Below, piece after piece: positions 15,766 to 38,868 of a stretch of 39,157 nt of DNA. The stretch lies in contig JAZDOE010000016.1 in NCBI GenBank assembly GCA_043798985.1, forward strand, positions 1 to 39,157, in the 5' to 3' direction. How positions within the stretch are numbered: the stretch's first letter is position 1; the number at the start of each line of letters is the position of its first letter. Origin of the DNA: Candidatus Falkowbacteria bacterium (lineage in GTDB: Bacteria; Patescibacteriota; Patescibacteriia; UBA11705; JACRDX01). Below the pieces are notes generated by a model that was not told where the DNA came from, made no database searches, and worked only from the letters and a program-made list of their open reading frames with translations. The position numbers and the translations under genes are program-made.

Positions 15766-16536
15766 ATGCTTAAAGAACCAACAATAAAAGCAGAACAAGA
15801 ACAACGCGAACGCGTGGAACGCGGGATCAGGATGGCCGCGGTTTTCGGTTGCGCGCCCGCGCAAATGAAATTGTGCGGACGAAAGGACAAGGAAACGCCG
15901 CAGGTTTTGCAGAATTTTTTAGCGAACAAGGGCGGCGTTGATTCAGCGCGGGCGCGCGAAGTTCTGGAAAATTTTGAAGCGGCAACTGAGTATTACAAAT
16001 TAATTGCCGCGGCAAACAACATTCCAGACCCCTTTGACGAACGCGTGGTTGAAGCATATTGGATTGGCAATGATTTATTGGAAAAAGTTAAACCCGATGA
16101 TATTAAAAAAATGATTTTGGAAAAATTTGTCGGCGCGAAAATGATGACGCAAGAAGACGCAGAAGCGCGAGTCGCGAAATTAGCAGCCGACATTGTTGCT
16201 CATCATAATTTTCACGTGCTGGCTTTAGGCGCGGCGAGCGCTGAAGCTCGGCAAGTAGCTGGATTGTACGAATTGTGCAGTGTAAATTTTGGCAAAGTTG
16301 TTGGCGTTGAAGATAATAAAGTGACAATAAAATACAAGCCACTTGTTTTAGAAGACAGCGGGTTTACGGTCAGCAACAATGAGGTTGCAAAGCAACTAAC
16401 TTGGGACAAAAATGTTGCGCCAGAAATAAAAAATGGAGACAGCGTTTGTTTCCATTGGAATCAGGTTTGCCAAAAATTGACAGAAGCGCAAGCGCGCAAC
16501 TTGGCAGAATATACACGCGTGGCGTTGTCATCCTGA
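15766..16536 (+). CDS. conserved hypothetical protein (resembles DUF6390, with a HypC-like C-terminal motif)
   Basis: FEAATEYYKLIA...DPFDERVVEAYWIG, AHHNFHVL, GDSVCFHW; family recalled from motifs, not searched. Confidence 0.65.
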   Translation: MLKEPTIKAEQEQRERVERGIRMAAVFGCAPAQMKLCGRKDKETPQVLQNFLANKGGVDSARAREVLENFEAATEYYKLIAAANNIPDPFDERVVEAYWIGNDLLEKVKPDDIKKMILEKFVGAKMMTQEDAEARVAKLAADIVAHHNFHVLALGAASAEARQVAGLYELCSVNFGKVVGVEDNKVTIKYKPLVLEDSGFTVSNNEVAKQLTWDKNVAPEIKNGDSVCFHWNQVCQKLTEAQARNLAEYTRVALSS

Positions 16537-16882
16537 GCCTGTCGAAGGATGACGAGATGCACACAACTTTGCCAGCTGTGGCAGATCGTCTAACTGCGCA
16601 AAAATTAGCGCTTCTTTTTTTTCTCTACGCCAACCCTTAAGCTGCTTCTCTCTGGCGATTGCCTTATCAACATCAACAAATTCCTCATAATATACGAGCA
16701 CAACCGGTCGCCGTGAATATGTATAACAAAACGTTTTTTGACCGTCGTTATGCTGATTGATCCTATGATTGATATTATTGGTCACGCCAGTATAATAGCT
16801 ACCGTCCGAACACCTTAAAATATACACGTAATAATATTTATACATAAGGTTTGGTCGCCCTTCGACAAGCTCAGGGTGACAA
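16525..16882. mobile_element. GIY-YIG gene flanked by inverted REP-like hairpins
   Basis: ttgtcatcctgagcctgtcgaagga (16525-16549) versus reverse complement of 16858-16882 ttgtcaccctgagcttgtcgaaggg: 22/25 identical. Confidence 0.7.
16528..16845 (-). CDS. GIY-YIG nuclease family protein (UPF0213-like)
   Basis: YYVYILRCSDGSYYTGVTN...R...HN...RRPVVLVYYE...AIAREKQLKGW. Confidence 0.92.
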   Translation of the reverse strand: MYKYYYVYILRCSDGSYYTGVTNNINHRINQHNDGQKTFCYTYSRRPVVLVYYEEFVDVDKAIAREKQLKGWRREKKEALIFAQLDDLPQLAKLCASRHPSTGSG

Positions 16883-31450: not shown

Positions 31451-31586
31451 GGGAACCTCCTTTTGGTCACGGGATGCCGTAGAGAGTTTTGCTCTCAATC
31501 GGGTCGTGATCCGTTAGCTGAAGGTTAGCAAATATACTAAAAAAAGTCAATCCCAACAATGAGTTTGACTCTTAATTTACGTTAAA

Positions 31587-31679
31587 TGCGCCCCGTAGGA
31601 ATCGAACCTACATCACTGGTTCCGCCCTGTCATTCGACAGGGCGCCCCGTCGGATGACGGGGCGAAGACGAGTCTATCC
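31587..31679 (-). pseudogene. 3'-half duplicate of tRNA-Arg(UCG) with a 40-bp double hairpin in the anticodon loop and a degenerate D-arm remnant
   Basis: 31585-31624 identical to 31948-31987; insert 31625-31664; then aagacgagtctatcc versus aagaccagtactctatcc in the intact gene. Confidence 0.88.
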
Positions 31680-31941
31680 TTAGGCATCCCAACTGGTTTA
31701 GGATGTCTCGAAGCTGTTGTTTTAGTAATCGTTTTCCTTCAGTCGTTTTTAGGAATTGTTCTCTTCGTTGCGCATCGCTTTTTAAGATATAAGTTTCGTA
31801 ATGAGTTAATGTCAGCGGGCGGTAATTTTTTGTGGAGACAACCTTGCCAATTTTATGTTGCACAAGTCGTTCATTAAGATCCGCAGTGCTTCCGGTATAA
31901 AGATTTTTATTGGATAAACAGAGAATATATACGAAATACAT
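31630..31941 (-). CDS. GIY-YIG nuclease family protein
   Basis: MYFVYIL...LYTGST.DL..RL.QH..G.V.ST...RP...HYE.Y...DA.RRE.FLK; start set at ATG 31941. Confidence 0.92.
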   Translation of the reverse strand: MYFVYILCLSNKNLYTGSTADLNERLVQHKIGKVVSTKNYRPLTLTHYETYILKSDAQRREQFLKTTEGKRLLKQQLRDILNQLGCLRIDSSSPRHPTGRPVE

Positions 31942-31949
31942 ATTTACAA

Positions 31950-32021
31950 TGCGCCCCGTAGGAATCGAACCTACATCACTGGTTCCGAAGACCAGTACTC
32001 TATCCGTTGAGCTAGGGGCGC
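31950..32021 (-). tRNA. tRNA-Arg(UCG)
   Basis: GCGCCCC/GGGGCGC acceptor, CTGGT-CT-TCG-GA-ACCAG, GTAGG-TTCGATT-CCTAC. Confidence 0.95.
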
Positions 32022-32035
32022 ACGATTGATGAAAT

Positions 32036-35100: not shown

Positions 35101-35715
35101 ATGGGTAAGTCCGTAGCGTTGGAACAGTCGCATGCTTTGATGGCAGTGTTAGCGCAGAATGTGGATTGGAGTCAGCTGGATGCTGATACCATCCAGGCGA
35201 TTATCATGGCGCCAAGAGAGTCTGGCGCGCAGTTCACGGCTTTCTTGAGGAATCGGGGACAGATGGTTGTCGGCGGGAGTAATAAGCTGACGATTGACCG
35301 GAGCAAGCCGTTTGACCCGGTTGCGTTCGTCGGGAAGGGATGGAAGATCGGAGAGCAGGACGAACGCGCGCTGGCGTTGACCGAGATTGATCTTGCCGCA
35401 GTGCAGTTGAAACACATGCTCAAGGATAGAGAGCCGTACGTGGGGGGAGAAGAGAAGCTGACGCGGCTCAAGGTCGCAGGGTATGTTCGCCTTGACGCAG
35501 GCGTGTTTGAGACGCTGTGGAACAATCAGCATCTCATTCCCGAGAGATGGAAGGGCAAGATCGTGTATTTTGACGGCACCGTTCTGGTGTCGCCGGACGG
35601 TGGTCGATATGTGCTCTGCATTGACGGGGGTGGTGGGCAGTGGAGCCGGGACTGCGGCTACCTTAACCACAGCTTCAGCGGCAATAACCCGTCGGCTGTC
35701 CTCGCCGCGCCATAG
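35101..35715 (+). CDS. hypothetical protein, possible DGR target
   Basis: GAGAGGTG SD; NNC-codon-rich 3' end followed by a hairpin. Confidence 0.75.
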   Translation: MGKSVALEQSHALMAVLAQNVDWSQLDADTIQAIIMAPRESGAQFTAFLRNRGQMVVGGSNKLTIDRSKPFDPVAFVGKGWKIGEQDERALALTEIDLAAVQLKHMLKDREPYVGGEEKLTRLKVAGYVRLDAGVFETLWNNQHLIPERWKGKIVYFDGTVLVSPDGGRYVLCIDGGGGQWSRDCGYLNHSFSGNNPSAVLAAP

Positions 35716-35729
35716 CACTTTCATTGCAA

Positions 35730-35761
35730 TCCCTTTGGTAAATTACCGAAGGGAGTTTTTT
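35730..35761 (+). terminator. hairpin with T tail (terminator, or DGR-type downstream stem-loop)
   Basis: tccctttggtaa-a-ttaccgaaggga gtttttt. Confidence 0.65.
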
Positions 35762-35794
35762 ATCTAGCGGCAAAGTATGATAAAATGAGTTTGT

Positions 35795-36220
35795 ATGGTA
35801 AACAATAAGAGTTCGCGCGTCCCGCTTGCCGAAGTTTCTGAGAGTTTTTCCCGATCAAGCGGAAAGGGCGGGCAAAACGTTAATAAGCTGGAAACAAAAG
35901 TTGAATTGCGCTGGAATATCGGAGCGTCATTGGCGTTTGACGAGGCGCAAAAACAAATGATTCGCTTAGCTTTGCAAAATCGGATAAATAGCGCGGATGA
36001 GGTTGTTATTTTTTGCCAAGAAGAAAGAACGCAGGGACGAAATCGGGAATTGGCGTTTGAAAAATTGAATCAACTTGTTGCGCGGGCGATTGTGCCGATA
36101 AAAAAAAGACGGCCAACAAAACCGACGCATGCGTCAAAAGAAAAAAGATTGGCATTGAAAAAAGCGATGACAATAAAAAAGAAAGATAGAAAAAAGATTG
36201 TGAAAGTGGAATCCATTTAG
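35795..36220 (+). CDS. arfB: alternative ribosome rescue peptidyl-tRNA hydrolase
   Basis: RSSGKGGQNVNK..TKVELR, RTQGRN, basic tail RRPTKPT...RL..KK. Confidence 0.93.
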   Translation: MVNNKSSRVPLAEVSESFSRSSGKGGQNVNKLETKVELRWNIGASLAFDEAQKQMIRLALQNRINSADEVVIFCQEERTQGRNRELAFEKLNQLVARAIVPIKKRRPTKPTHASKEKRLALKKAMTIKKKDRKKIVKVESI

Positions 36221-36223
36221 AAT

Positions 36224-36304
36224 GGAGAGGTGCCAGAGTGGTTGAATGGGCCGCTCTCGCCCCGTCATTCGACGGGGCGCCCTGTCGAATGACAGGGCGA
36301 AAAG
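36224..36304 (+). pseudogene. 5'-half duplicate of tRNA-Ser(CGA) with a 40-bp double hairpin in the anticodon
   Basis: 36222-36259 matches 36588-36625 at 37/38; insert 36260-36299; then aaaag versus aaatg in the intact gene. Confidence 0.88.
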
Positions 36305-36308
36305 TTGT

Positions 36309-36578
36309 ATGTTTTACCTTTATATACTTTTGTTAGCTAATAAACAGTTGTATACTGGTTTTTCTTCTGACTTAAAGGTGCGGTTTAGACAGCACGAAAA
36401 TGGTAGCGTTGAGTCAACGAGACATAAACGGCCGGTTAAGTTGATTCATTATGAAGCATATTTGAAGGAATCTGACGCTCGGCGCCGGGAGAAATTTTTA
36501 AAGACAACAGAGGGGAAGCGATTATTAAAAATGCAGATTCGGGATTTGCTTTTAGGACATGGATTCATCATGAAATAA
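36309..36578 (+). CDS. GIY-YIG nuclease family protein
   Basis: MFYLYIL...LYTGFSSDL..R..QH..G.V.ST...RP...HYEAY...DARRREKFLK; start set at ATG 36309. Confidence 0.92.
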   Translation: MFYLYILLLANKQLYTGFSSDLKVRFRQHENGSVESTRHKRPVKLIHYEAYLKESDARRREKFLKTTEGKRLLKMQIRDLLLGHGFIMK

Positions 36579-38040
36579 ATAATGTACATGGAGAGGTGCC
36601 AGAGTGGCTGAATGGGCCGCTCTCGAAATGCGGTAGGTTGGAAACAGCCTCGAGGGTTCGACTCCCTCCCTCTCCGCCAGTTGGGAAATGAAGTCATTGG
36701 CTCGCCCGCTATGCGGGCTCGCCAGCCGTTTTTCGGGGAAATTTCAAGCCGTTTTGAATTCAACATAAAGTTCGAGCCGACATTTTTGAGAAATGCACGG
36801 ATTTGCGTTTTGTCGCCCTGCGACAAAAGAATTTTGGCTTGGCTACTCAATAAAATCACTTCTCGCATCAGTTCGAGCCAATTATTTCCCTTTTGTTCAA
36901 AATCTCTGATTTCTTGGTCTATATCGGCTTTCTCGCCCAATAGTTTTGCTTTCTTGGTCTGATACTCGTCCGGCGATATTCCTTTGCCCTCGATGTAAAT
37001 ATCAAGAAGCCGATCTATTTTCTGCTCAACCTCCACTTTTCGTTCTTTCAGATTTTGAACAAAAGAAACACCCTCGTTTTGGATACTCGTTTTCTCTCGG
37101 TCTAACTCGGCAAGCATATTGTCTCTCCAGTCGTCGGGAATAGAAACTTTTTGAATGACGGCTTTCATCTGTTCAACAAGTGCTTCCTCGCGCAGATATT
37201 TTTCGTTACAGGTTTGCTTTTTCTTGGTGCAACGATAATACACATGACCTTTTTGGGTTTCGGCGGTAATGAGGCAACCGCACTTTCCGCATTTCATAAA
37301 ACCAGAAAAAGCAAACTCGTGCTTTCGCTTTCTCTTTTTCTTGCCTCGATTGCTCATTACTTGTTGAACGGAATCAAAAAGTTTCTTGGAAATAATTGGC
37401 TCGTGGCTTCCTTCGTATAGCTCGCCGTTGAAACGGAAAGTTCCATAATAAAAAGGATTTTTCAACATTCGCTGGACACAGGAAGTTGAGAGAACATTGC
37501 CTTTGTAGCTGTCGAGTCCGGTATCCGCCAAAAACTGCTTGATATTTTTGAGGGTGTTGTCGCCGGTGCCATAAAGTTCAAAACATTTTCGCACTAACAC
37601 AGATTTATCATTATCGAGGTCTATGCTCTTTGTTTTTGAGTTGTTGAGATAACCGAGTGGCGCAAACCCCGGCCATATTCCCTTTCGCAGTTTTTGGCGG
37701 TGGCCCCGCTTGATGTTCTCGCTCAAATTGTCCACATAGTATTTACTCTGTCCAAAGGCAATGTTCAGCATAAATTTCCCCTGTGGCGTTGAATCAAACC
37801 AAAATGTGGGAAATTTAAGGTCTTGGATTTTTCCCGTGTCCAGCAGATAGATAATCTTTCCGCCGTCTATGGAATTGCGAGCTAATCGATCGGGGTGCCA
37901 AGCCAAAATTCCACCGGCTTCTCCGGCGCAAATCCGATCCAGCATTTCTGCGAAAACTTTTCGCCCAGGTTCTTTGGCAGTTTGCGCCTCGCTGAGCGAG
38001 GCGACGATTTCAAGTTTTTCTTTGGCGGCAAATTCTTTTT
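36449..38040 (-). pseudogene. large serine recombinase, apparently lacking its N-terminal catalytic segment; frame reads antisense through tRNA-Ser
   Basis: AKEPGRKVF, WHPDRLARN, APLGY, NPFYYG, HEPIIS, CGKCG...YYRC; upstream of 37945 the frame hits TAA near 38055 without a Y.R.S motif. Confidence 0.8.
36590..36679 (+). tRNA. tRNA-Ser(CGA)
   Basis: GGAGAGG/CCTCTCC acceptor, G discriminator, CCA, long variable arm, CT-CGA-AA loop (U31:U39 mismatch). Confidence 0.93.
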
Positions 38041-38043
38041 TAA

Positions 38044-38868
38044 CTATTTCTTTTTAACTATCACCATGAAATGCAAACTAAACTCGGCGACCATAGGATT
38101 AGTGCATAATTCGTAATGCATATCCTGCCAATTTTTCCACGCCTCTGGCTCTTTTTTTGCCATTTTATTTATCTGCTCTTGAGAGGGAGTTGCAAGACCT
38201 TCCAAACCAACATTTTCTAAAAAATCTGCCTTGTTGTCGAATAAAGATTTGAGTTCATTCAATTCAAAAAAGTGAGCGTAAGCTTTTCCTCCGTGCCACT
38301 GATAATCATCTCCTTTCAAATAAAATCTCCTAAAATGTTCAGTATCTTTCACTTCATGAACCCACCTATGAAATCTTGTTATTGTTCCAAGTTTTCCCAT
38401 AACCGATACAAAAATTGGAGCGTTCTTTTTAGCAACACGGACTAATTCGGAAATTGCTTTTTGTCTTTCTTGTTCAGGGTGCACATGAGAAAGCGCGCCA
38501 CCGAGACAGAGAATTGCGTCAAAAGAATTATCCGCAAATCTTGATAAATCGGTTATAGTTCCTTCTACCACTTCCTTAATTTTTTCATTTACTTTAGATT
38601 TTTTGATTTGCTTTTTAGCAAAATCAAGATTTGCGGAAACCAAATCAAGTAAAATTACATCGTGCCCAAGCTTGGCTAACTCAATAGAGTATCTACCGGG
38701 GCCGCCGCCGGCGTCTAAAATAAAACCATTCTTTGGTAAATATTTTTTCAAAAATCGTAAGGTAGTTTCAAATTCTAAACGATGGAATGGGTCTTTAGTC
38801 AACCGCCTCCACTCTCTTTTTACGCCTTCGGTATAAATCTTTTTTGTAAGTTTTGTTTCTTTATTCAT
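38044..38868 (-). CDS. class I SAM-dependent methyltransferase
   Basis: ILDAGGGPGRYS, LLDL, DNSFDAILCLG. Confidence 0.9.
   Translation of the reverse strand: MNKETKLTKKIYTEGVKREWRRLTKDPFHRLEFETTLRFLKKYLPKNGFILDAGGGPGRYSIELAKLGHDVILLDLVSANLDFAKKQIKKSKVNEKIKEVVEGTITDLSRFADNSFDAILCLGGALSHVHPEQERQKAISELVRVAKKNAPIFVSVMGKLGTITRFHRWVHEVKDTEHFRRFYLKGDDYQWHGGKAYAHFFELNELKSLFDNKADFLENVGLEGLATPSQEQINKMAKKEPEAWKNWQDMHYELCTNPMVAEFSLHFMVIVKKK

Follow-up and report, generated by a model that had tools for sequence, protein, structure and literature searches.

The closest described counterparts of the element considered here belong to several groups. I-TevI is a GIY-YIG homing endonuclease, integrative elements that target tRNA genes carry a partial tRNA copy and regenerate the gene on integration, and Rickettsia-type palindromic elements provide a further comparison for small GC-rich palindromes. 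SegB of phage T4, a GIY-YIG homing enzyme encoded in a tRNA gene cluster, produces 2-nucleotide (nt) 3' ends (PMC2330249), and the hairpin-guided REP/RAYT and IS200/IS605 elements are discussed beside the Ssn family (PMC11893778). The Ssn family comprises single-domain GIY-YIG proteins of 94 amino acids (aa), the genes of which are flanked by hairpin repeats (NTS/SRM) and which cut single-stranded DNA (ssDNA) near the hairpin (Chenal et al., Nat Commun 2025, PMC11893778). The element under study, a GIY-YIG nuclease gene with a GC-rich double hairpin at the tRNA-Ser(CGA) gene, was found in a stretch of 39,157 nt of Candidatus Falkowbacteria bacterium (contig JAZDOE010000016.1; hereinafter, the window), which is contig 21 of a 752-kb genome in 23 contigs with 42% GC.

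The unit at tRNA-Ser(CGA) is probably one somewhat decayed copy of a widespread selfish cassette, which combines a single-domain GIY-YIG gene (~85 aa) with a double hairpin of 40 nt and is located within a tRNA gene. The architecture of the cassette, its recurrence, its insertion sites, the structure of its hairpins and its patchy distribution across phyla are all observed directly. The locus contains the following features, with positions given for the window.

35795-36220, plus strand: arfB-like open reading frame (ORF), alternative ribosome-rescue peptidyl-tRNA hydrolase; NCBIfam NF006718 ArfB, 7e-37, 126 bits versus a cut-off of 100; Pfam RF-1 domain
36222-36259, plus strand: broken tRNA-Ser(CGA) copy, first copy of the direct repeat (2-nt leader and tRNA positions 1-36)
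36260-36299, no strand assigned: GC-rich palindromic block of 40 nt, two stem-loops by folding
36260-36279, no strand assigned: hairpin 1, CCCCGTC ATTC GACGGGG followed by CG (folding and covariation)
36280-36299, no strand assigned: hairpin 2, CCCTGTC GAAT GACAGGG followed by CG (folding and covariation); apex TCGAAT, the T-loop sequence
36300-36304, plus strand: AAAAG after the hairpins, either the broken tRNA continuing (positions 37-41, A39 included) or a similar sequence belonging to the cassette
36309-36578, plus strand: GIY-YIG nuclease gene, 89 aa (Pfam PF01541; start set by homologues beginning with MFY or MYY)
36588-36625, plus strand: second copy of the direct repeat, the 5' half of the working tRNA-Ser(CGA) (repeat comparison)
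36590-36679, plus strand: intact tRNA-Ser(CGA) with a U31:U39 mismatch (ARAGORN)

Among published systems, the tRNA cassette most resembles the Ssn family. Both have a single-domain GIY-YIG protein of ~90 aa (89 aa here and 94 aa in SsnA), a gene flanked by its own hairpin-forming repeats of 20-50 nt (9 nt upstream at the Ser locus), many divergent pairs of nuclease and hairpin, and an architecture reminiscent of an insertion sequence (PMC11893778). In contrast to Ssn loci, the hairpins of the cassette form a fixed pair at a precise position of a tRNA loop, and the whole is embedded in a partly duplicated tRNA gene; the main text of PMC11893778 never mentions tRNA.

Free-standing GIY-YIG homing endonucleases are similar in that their genes lie in or next to highly conserved RNA genes and are patchily distributed, and spread by repair or recombination would explain co-converted flanks. 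Insertion into a conserved target with empty alleles was likewise found for the cassette: 72 of 80 related loci are at a tRNA, and 15 of 17 tRNA-Ser(CGA) loci of relatives are empty. Unlike these enzymes, the 89-aa nuclease has no separate DNA-binding domain with a long recognition site, and the cassette resides in bacterial chromosomes rather than in phages. Its target gene is physically interrupted and made whole again by duplication, the junction is occupied by a conserved double hairpin, and a working target site persists beside the cassette gene.

An intact tRNA and a partial direct repeat bound the inserted DNA, as in tRNA-targeting integrative elements; the differences are that the cassette is only ~330 nt long with no integrase inside the repeats, that the break falls in the T-loop or anticodon loop, and that the restored part may be either 5' or 3'. 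With REP/RAYT, IS200/IS605 and palindromic elements, the cassette shares small GC-rich palindromes, which multiply in the genome together with a dedicated nuclease or transposase gene, and insertion beside a short specific target. It is distinguished from them by an enzyme of the GIY-YIG and not the HUH type and by targets that are tRNA-gene loops. No description of tRNA-embedded GIY-YIG/hairpin cassettes in bacteria was found in full-text searches of the literature, and the supplements of PMC11893778 might list such loci. The present analysis contributes the recognition of the T-loop as the canonical insertion site and of anticodon-loop mimicry at Ser(CGA) and Arg(TCG), a covariation test, a census across phyla, and the unique 31:39 mismatch.

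Structure of the locus and recurrence of the cassette

The arfB stop codon (TAG, 36218-36220) is separated by 3 nt from the broken tRNA copy, which ends with CTCG within the anticodon loop and was matched by BLAST with tRNA-Ser(CGA) at 36224-36259 (E = 3e-12). The presence of a broken 5' half between arfB and the nuclease gene had been reported in an initial annotation of the window and is borne out, the copy proper starting at 36224, the fourth nt after the stop. The close spacing of hairpin, nuclease gene and tRNA described there was also recovered: the nuclease gene starts at 36309, 9 nt past the palindrome, and its stop codon (36576-36578) is followed after 11 nt by the intact tRNA. The direct repeat of 38 nt (36222-36259 and 36588-36625) is alike at 37 of 38 positions, with one mismatch. 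The broken and intact tRNA halves are identical at 35 of 36 positions, and this near-identity suggests a recent event or gene conversion. Past the palindrome, the broken copy reads AAAAG, where the intact gene has AAATG, as the initial annotation had noted; in sister loci, the 6 nt after the hairpins match the tRNA of the same locus, as judged by eye.

The encoded protein is a member of the GIY-YIG superfamily, matching PF01541 with E = 1.2e-13 and 51.6 bits (cut-off 22.6) over profile positions 1-74 of 78, and the assignment was confirmed by a Pfam search of the whole genome. The 89 aa contain one Pfam domain, with the catalytic domain spanning residues 1-70, and, among proteins of solved structure, the UPF0213 members 1ywl and 1zg2 are its closest relatives. 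No family was matched in the NCBIfam and PHROGs scans. In phage and plasmid collections, relatives were found only at ≤37% identity, and the one phage relative locus that was inspected is not beside tRNAs.

A search with the hairpin region revealed a second cassette in the window (31586-32022, minus strand), in which the same 40-nt double hairpin is matched at 31620-31665 with 96% identity over 46 nt, flanks included. Its features are as follows.

31949-32022, minus strand: intact tRNA-Arg(TCG) (ARAGORN)
31630-31941, minus strand: GIY-YIG paralogue, 58-59% identical to the Ser-locus nuclease
31623-31662, minus strand: double hairpin downstream of the nuclease gene (96% identity over 46 nt)
31586-31624, minus strand: exact 3' half of tRNA-Arg(TCG), positions 36-74 (BLAST 39/39; local alignment)

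On the minus strand, the order is tRNA-Arg(TCG), 7 nt, the GIY-YIG gene, a degenerate 5' tRNA piece, the double hairpin and the tRNA 3' half. The hairpins follow CTTCG in the anticodon loop of the degenerate tRNA-Arg copy, and the nuclease ORF continues through the broken tRNA, gaining ~20 aa at its C-terminus before it ends within the hairpin 2 loop.

Genome analysis showed the presence of 11 GIY-YIG domains above the Pfam cut-off. Nine of the 11 genes overlap a tRNA gene or lie ≤56 nt from one on the same strand, namely, Ser-CGA, Arg-TCG, Trp, Asp, Gln-CTG, Gln-TTG, Val-CAC and two Met; by a rough estimate (45 tRNA genes, 752 kb), ~1% of random positions would be so near a tRNA. At eight of the nine loci, a broken copy of the same tRNA adjoins the cassette, and these copies are cut by GC-rich palindromes at D-loop, anticodon-loop or T-loop positions. 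Twelve of the 45 tRNA genes have a fragment of their own sequence ≤400 nt away, scoring above the 99th percentile of a cross-tRNA control. The 100-nt leader stretch at the Ser locus folds at -50.7 kcal/mol (z = -5.9 versus shuffles); given this fold and the recurrence of the layout of tRNA repeat and nuclease at nine tRNA genes, the arrangement is not due to chance.

The scan for relatives, performed with one genome per species and with the Ser and Arg nuclease pair as the query, gave 80 loci encoding proteins of 52-78% identity. The hosts are many lineages of the Candidate Phyla Radiation (CPR), together with Verrucomicrobiota/Kiritimatiellae, Gammaproteobacteria, Omnitrophota, Cloacimonadota and Bdellovibrionales. 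In 72 loci, a tRNA lies ≤150 nt from the nuclease gene, co-oriented with it in 72 of 72 cases and representing 21 anticodon species (ARAGORN and local alignment); of the remaining eight, five have no tRNA in the piece examined and three have one at 158-826 nt. A fragment of the same tRNA within 400 nt was found in 59 of the 72 tRNA-linked loci, a count made with only the nearest tRNA masked, so that a few matches may be cross-matches. In many cases, the fragment and the working gene share 100% identity over 55-72 nt, and the usual broken copy extends from position 1 to the T-loop. Partial matches to tRNA positions 1-43 in relatives were discarded as candidates, being located inside intact tRNA genes and not in broken copies.

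The comparison with tRNA-Ser(CGA) of relatives that the initial annotation had called for showed that empty alleles exist, and the arrangement is thus not universal: among 17 tRNA-Ser(CGA) loci of relatives of the same order or class, a GIY gene within ~1.5 kb is present in two and absent from 15. A strict pattern joining the T-loop to hairpin 1 was found in 11 of 400 sampled genomes of the phylum, the source genome not being counted, and the reversed control pattern in none; the source genome itself has no match to the strict pattern. In a quick maximum-likelihood tree of 90 columns, the Ser-locus protein groups with those of loci L051, L052 and L054 (SH-aLRT 85), all of which are at tRNA-Ser(CGA) in different CPR lineages. 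The hairpins of these loci are also in the anticodon loop, preceded by GCACTCG in L051 and by CTCTCG in L052 and L054. Copies of the T-loop type at Ser(CGA) fall elsewhere in the tree, and phyla and tRNA types are intermixed. A GIY-YIG domain protein is among the genes predicted to have been donated by Patescibacteria to other bacteria (PMC12455944).

These data also bear on a host-beneficial function, in which a domesticated, Ssn-like ssDNA nuclease would police incoming or replicating ssDNA with tRNA-arm-like hairpins, such as that taken up in transformation or that of elements integrating at tRNA genes, the tRNA operon ensuring its expression. SsnA modulates natural transformation in Neisseria (PMC11893778), residues Y15, G17, R25, H29 and E61 are invariant in all nine tRNA-linked paralogues, and nine copies are present in a streamlined genome of 0.75 Mb. 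The conserved Tyr residues of the GIY and YIG motifs, together with Arg, His and Glu, are presumably catalytic. Against such a function speak the patchy distribution (two of 17 relatives at tRNA-Ser(CGA) and 11 of 400 phylum genomes for the T-loop junction), the high divergence of the paralogues (24-58% identity), the Val(CAC) copy devoid of the first motif, and the broken tRNA copies and tandem debris, which resemble selfish turnover and not a maintained system. A domesticated nuclease is accordingly given a low probability.

The Val(CAC) copy (contig C14, 24118-24483, minus strand), in which the GIY motif is absent and a stop lies just after the upstream ATG, is probably decaying. The ORFs of three copies (Asp, Gln-CTG and Val-CAC) end inside the intact tRNA. 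The two other GIY-YIG genes of the genome, at 16531-16845 (minus strand) in the window and at 1523-1795 of contig C15, belong to another subfamily, are 36% identical to the Ser-locus nuclease, carry a REKQLK...W/F.R.KK tail and have no tRNA called within 4 kb; their products seem closer to typical Ssn/cd10448 sequences than the tRNA-linked copies are.

Tandem arrays of two to four tRNA 5' fragments (~54-58 nt each), with a GC hairpin after GCTC of the D-arm, were observed at 1480-1940 of contig C20, 3130-3300 of contig C6 and 550-660 of contig C8. They lie directly upstream of intact tRNAs, and the tRNAs downstream of the arrays are tRNA-Val(TAC), tRNA-Ile(GAT), tRNA-Thr(TGT) and tRNA-Phe. The end of contig C20 (1940-2079) and the start of contig C8 (1-140) have a ~35-nt tandem repeat in common, at which the two probably join; in that case, the GIY-YIG/tRNA-Met cassette of contig C8 would fall just downstream of tRNA-Ile(GAT). 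In some relatives, broken tRNA and hairpins, with or without a GIY gene, are tandemly repeated (L054 at 1440-1540; L056, L076 and L106), and locus L076 contains up to four copies of the tRNA-hairpin unit spaced ~80-440 nt apart. Such tandem units suggest repeated local duplication around these sites.

Double hairpin and its insertion site

The palindrome noted in the initial annotation is present, but it consists of two adjacent 8-bp stem-loops, as shown by folding and covariation, and is not one long hairpin. Double hairpins were sought within 400 nt of the nuclease gene as two adjacent 7-bp stems with ≤1 mismatch each and ≥50% GC, and were detected at 53 of the 80 related loci (63 rows). The alignment of 55 copies was composed of 53 detector rows and the two copies of the window. 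Repeats within a locus, some with identical flanks (L056:1536, L076:1568, L076:1723, L076:1804, L083:841 and L106:1537), and four rows with a spacer other than 2 nt (L096, L103, L107:1015 and L122) were left out.

The consensus of the aligned unit is GGTTCG-CCCnGTCATnCGACnGGG-CG-CCCTGTCGnATGACAGGG-CG-AATCC, and the unit interrupts the T-loop between TTCG and AATCC. Among 54 distinct copies, compensatory changes were found in eight of eight pairs of hairpin 1 and in seven of eight pairs of hairpin 2. Under the two-hairpin model, 98.6% of cells in the 55 copies are paired, a share inflated by the copy filter, and both sides changed in 15 of the 16 pairs. The number of double-change cells was 132, a value reached by none of 500 shuffles, versus 29 in the shuffles, and slid controls had only 19-45% of cells paired. 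A single long hairpin (22-nt arms; 20-bp model) was rejected: it gave seven double-change pairs versus a shuffled mean of 8.0 and 82% paired cells versus 80.5% in shuffles, with double-change cells no better than in shuffles.

On the left side, 41 of the 55 copies have a T-loop-like flank (NGTTCG or a variant of it), and the commonest right flank is AATCC (23/55). Other left flanks are CTCTCG, the anticodon loop of Ser-CGA, in three copies (the Ser locus of the window, L052 and L054), CCTCCG of Arg-CCG in three, and that of Arg-TCG in two. In tRNA-Ser(CGA), the anticodon loop (CUCGAAA) is similar to the T-loop (UUCGAAU), and at the level of sequence the common denominator of the targets is YCG^RA in a 7-nt loop. 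Hairpin 2 has the apex TCGAAT and hairpin 1 its complement, so that each DNA strand shows one T-loop-like stem-loop. The dinucleotides before the insert and at its end agree in 48 of the 55 copies (46 CG/CG and two CA/CA), which hints at a 2-bp target duplication; the matching CG dinucleotides would fit a duplication resulting from a 2-nt staggered cut of the SegB type (PMC2330249).

Of the 14 exact copies of the hairpin family (CCYGTCNNNNGACRGG) in the genome, 13 are in or beside tRNA genes or fragments, including the tandem 5'-fragment arrays upstream of tRNA-Val(TAC), tRNA-Thr(TGT) and tRNA-Phe. This distribution is relevant to the possibility that the hairpins are an independent repeat resembling REP sequences or miniature inverted-repeat transposable elements, which landed in dispensable DNA, the GIY-YIG gene being a mere tRNA-proximal neighbour and the tRNA duplication the result of slippage or unequal recombination. 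The genome is indeed littered with GC-rich palindromes, with many matches to a loose pattern, and the arrays on contigs C20, C6 and C8 consist of tRNA 5' fragments with single hairpins and no nuclease gene. However, such a repeat does not account for the 13 of 14 exact copies at tRNA genes, for the co-occurrence of the double hairpin with the nuclease subfamily across phyla at a fixed distance and fixed tRNA position, or for the co-orientation of nuclease gene and tRNA in 72 of 72 loci, and it appears unlikely.

The initial annotation had proposed that the hairpin could control translation of the nuclease gene; hairpins and broken 5' half would then be an mRNA leader throttling or stabilising nuclease expression. 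A leader of this kind is consistent with the end of the hairpins 9 nt short of the nuclease ATG, with the strong folding of the 100-nt stretch, with the location of the double hairpin 12-61 nt upstream of the gene in 41 of the 80 related loci, with covariation, since selected stems are equally compatible with a role in RNA, and with a probable need of the nuclease gene for low expression. However, in 10 of the 80 loci (≤22 nt) and in the Arg(TCG) cassette of the window, these hairpins follow the gene instead of preceding it. Hairpins of the family are also found singly in tRNA fragments on contigs C20 (Val array) and C6 (Thr array), on neither of which was a GIY-YIG domain match detected. The unit is always at a precise position of a tRNA loop, with the consensus flanks GGTTCG and AATCC, which leader function does not explain, and between hairpin and ATG no Shine-Dalgarno sequence available for masking was visible by eye. 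The changing position of the hairpins relative to the gene, their presence where no nuclease gene is found and their exact placement in tRNA loops give no support to a dedicated role in translation, and the proposal is regarded as quite unlikely. The preferred reading remains that of a cassette inserted in the tRNA loop.

The 31:39 pair and the surroundings of the locus

In 31 distinct tRNA-Ser(CGA) genes, the 31:39 pair is U31-A39 in 22 (type CCGCT...AGCGG), A31-U39 in eight (type CCGCA...TGCGG) and U:U in one, the intact gene of the window (CCGCT...TGCGG). The intact gene therefore has a 5' strand of the U31-A39 type joined to a 3' strand of the A31-U39 type, and the junction of the types falls in the anticodon loop, the site of the cassette. 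The broken copy (CCGCT...A39) is self-consistent; the earlier suggestion that its A39 would restore a normal pair agrees with the 22 of 31 relatives carrying U31-A39. The mismatch may be a recombination scar. The broken half of locus L052 is identical at 33 of 36 positions to the broken half of the window and at 27 of 36 to its own partner tRNA, which suggests that the broken half travels with the cassette. It is also possible that the broken copy is the 5' part of the original gene, as was proposed in the initial annotation.

On the 3' side of the tRNA, the following feature was annotated.

36449-37945, minus strand: large serine recombinase ORF, 5'-truncated (Pfam Recombinase, Zn_ribbon_recom, and Resolvase positions 55-144 only)

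An in-frame stop lies 36 codons upstream of the first Met, with no start codon between them. In the full frame (36449-38041), the C-terminal ~90 codons run antisense through the tRNA-Ser and into the GIY gene, and a methyltransferase gene ends next to the frame, at 38044. Since the N-terminal resolvase part with the catalytic serine is absent and no upstream start exists, the ORF is, judging by its sequence, what is left of an element located at the 3' end of the tRNA. The statement that a serine-recombinase element uses the same tRNA thus holds as far as the ORF adjoins the 3' end, but what adjoins it is a remnant without the catalytic N-terminal part.

In four unrelated groundwater runs, summed contig depths rise into the thousands over the region 36648-36900, which comprises the tRNA 3' end and ~200 nt downstream, against 0-270 for the remainder of the stretch. 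Within this region are a GCCCGC-TAT-GCGGGC stem with a T-run behind it and the 3' end of the recombinase ORF; although single-copy in this genome, it seems to belong to a conserved or mobile sequence of very wide occurrence. Upstream of arfB, there is an ORF of 204 aa (35101-35715) without a Pfam match, followed by a terminator-like stem with a T-run at 35730-35764.

The contigs of four groundwater runs were compared with the locus. One contig of 284 nt from an independent run spans 36165-36443, from the end of arfB across the 5' half and the hairpins to the start of the GIY gene, and differs at 7 letters and by a 5-nt insert; a related strain therefore shares the left junction of arfB, broken half, hairpins and GIY gene. 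This is the single contig in support, and it covers the left junction only. Other groundwater contigs match the 5' half and continue past 36259 as ordinary tRNA-Ser genes of other organisms.

Searches for an empty allele of the locus in close strains gave negative results. No public sequencing run contains >16% of the sampled words of the stretch, the only genome of the same genus (89% complete) has no match to tRNA-Ser(CGA), and the exact 23-nt pattern of the arfB end had no match in the metagenome contigs. Relatives of the ArfB protein were found at ≤57% identity only, and none of 80 ArfB loci contains a tRNA, so that the linkage of arfB and tRNA is not conserved.

An origin of the tRNA duplication as an att-site duplication by the serine-recombinase element or another integrase-borne island, or as an assembly artefact, was considered, since the recombinase ORF adjoins the tRNA 3' end and repeats can mislead assemblers. 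It is hardly credible in view of the following. The repeats enclose just 328 nt, in which the hairpins and the GIY gene but no integrase are found; it is the 5' half, facing away from the recombinase, that was duplicated; and the recombinase itself, situated outside the repeats, lacks its catalytic N-terminus. No second copy of the tRNA 3' end and downstream flank (36660-36800) was found in the assembly, the left junction is backed by the independent contig, and the same layout is present in >70 other assemblies.

Proposed mechanism and significance of the cassette

According to the favoured interpretation of a selfish cassette, the tRNA gene is interrupted at a 7-nt loop with TCG^AA, normally the T-loop (GGTTCG-hairpins-AATCC). 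At Ser(CGA), the look-alike anticodon loop (CTCG-hairpins-AAA) is used instead, and at Arg(TCG) the anticodon loop as well. The host retains a working tRNA through a second copy of the gene segment to one side of the break, and the outcome is a broken copy, hairpins, nuclease gene and intact tRNA on one strand, within the tRNA transcription unit. The nuclease is predicted to be of the Ssn kind, a site-specific cutter of hairpin-associated ssDNA that recognises TCGAA shown in a stem-loop, a description fitting the tRNA T-arm, the Ser and Arg anticodon arms and its own hairpin 2 (apex TCGAAT). A cut in a cassette-free tRNA gene would be repaired from a cassette-bearing copy, with the flanking tRNA sequence serving as homology arms, as in homing, and the U31:U39 mismatch of the working gene would probably be a scar of such homing-type recombination. 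The chimeric 31:39 pair and the foreign-looking broken half of L052 provide indirect hints that the cassette is copied into cassette-free alleles.

In this scheme, the specificity of cleavage, the single-stranded substrate and the route of homing are inferences, and several points weigh against the interpretation. The main difficulty is the persistence of the target: the working tRNA beside each cassette, and nearly every tRNA gene of the cell, keeps TTCGA, so that unrestrained cutting of double-stranded sites in the genome by the enzyme is ruled out. A mechanism of immunity is not apparent, and the interpretation does not account for the first origin of the restoring duplication at a new tRNA. 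In contrast to classical GIY-YIG homing enzymes, the 89-aa nuclease lacks a separate DNA-binding domain. The hairpins of the cassette do not fit the SRM motif HGTCWYN(0-2)YYVSBRHN(0-5)WNVSBRGN(0-2)RNCYNB, which has one match in the whole genome, elsewhere on contig C15, versus 0-6 in block shuffles. For the Ser locus, no pair of filled and empty alleles was found among close strains (genome of the same genus, metagenome contigs and ArfB loci). A point mutation explains U:U as economically as recombination, and half-by-half identity to relatives of the U-A and A-U types does not discriminate between the two. The nuclease tree is short (90 columns), results from a quick search and is mostly unresolved, and the filter of ≤1 mismatch per stem inflates the percentage of paired cells, though not the diversity of pair types.

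More tentatively, and as a possibility favoured less than the cassette reading itself, tiny GIY-YIG 'tRNA-loop homing cassettes' may constitute a previously undescribed class of mobile elements. Its members would recognise the T-arm TTCGAA or look-alike anticodon loops as an ssDNA stem-loop, cut between G57 and A58, insert a T-arm-mimicking double hairpin with the nuclease gene, and carry or create the replacement part of the tRNA. The target being common to almost all bacterial tRNA genes, one family could hop among 20 or more tRNA species and among phyla. Its spread would remodel tRNA genes and leave behind chimeric tRNAs, of which the U31:U39 tRNA-Ser would be an example, as well as dead halves and fragments in tandem arrays.

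If the cassette reading is right, tRNA genes of ultra-small CPR/Patescibacteria and several other phyla would be a regular landing site for a minimal nuclease element, which splits tRNAs at a defined loop nucleotide and survives by duplication of part of the gene. The abundance of dead, palindrome-bearing tRNA halves in these genomes would thereby be explained, and chimeric tRNA genes would have a mechanism of origin. The Ssn/hairpin world would be linked to classical homing. The cassettes would also offer a naturally occurring collection of very small nucleases, the stem-loop target of which (TCGAA in the loop) is simple and predictable; this would be of practical interest, as Ssn enzymes are under development as ssDNA tools.

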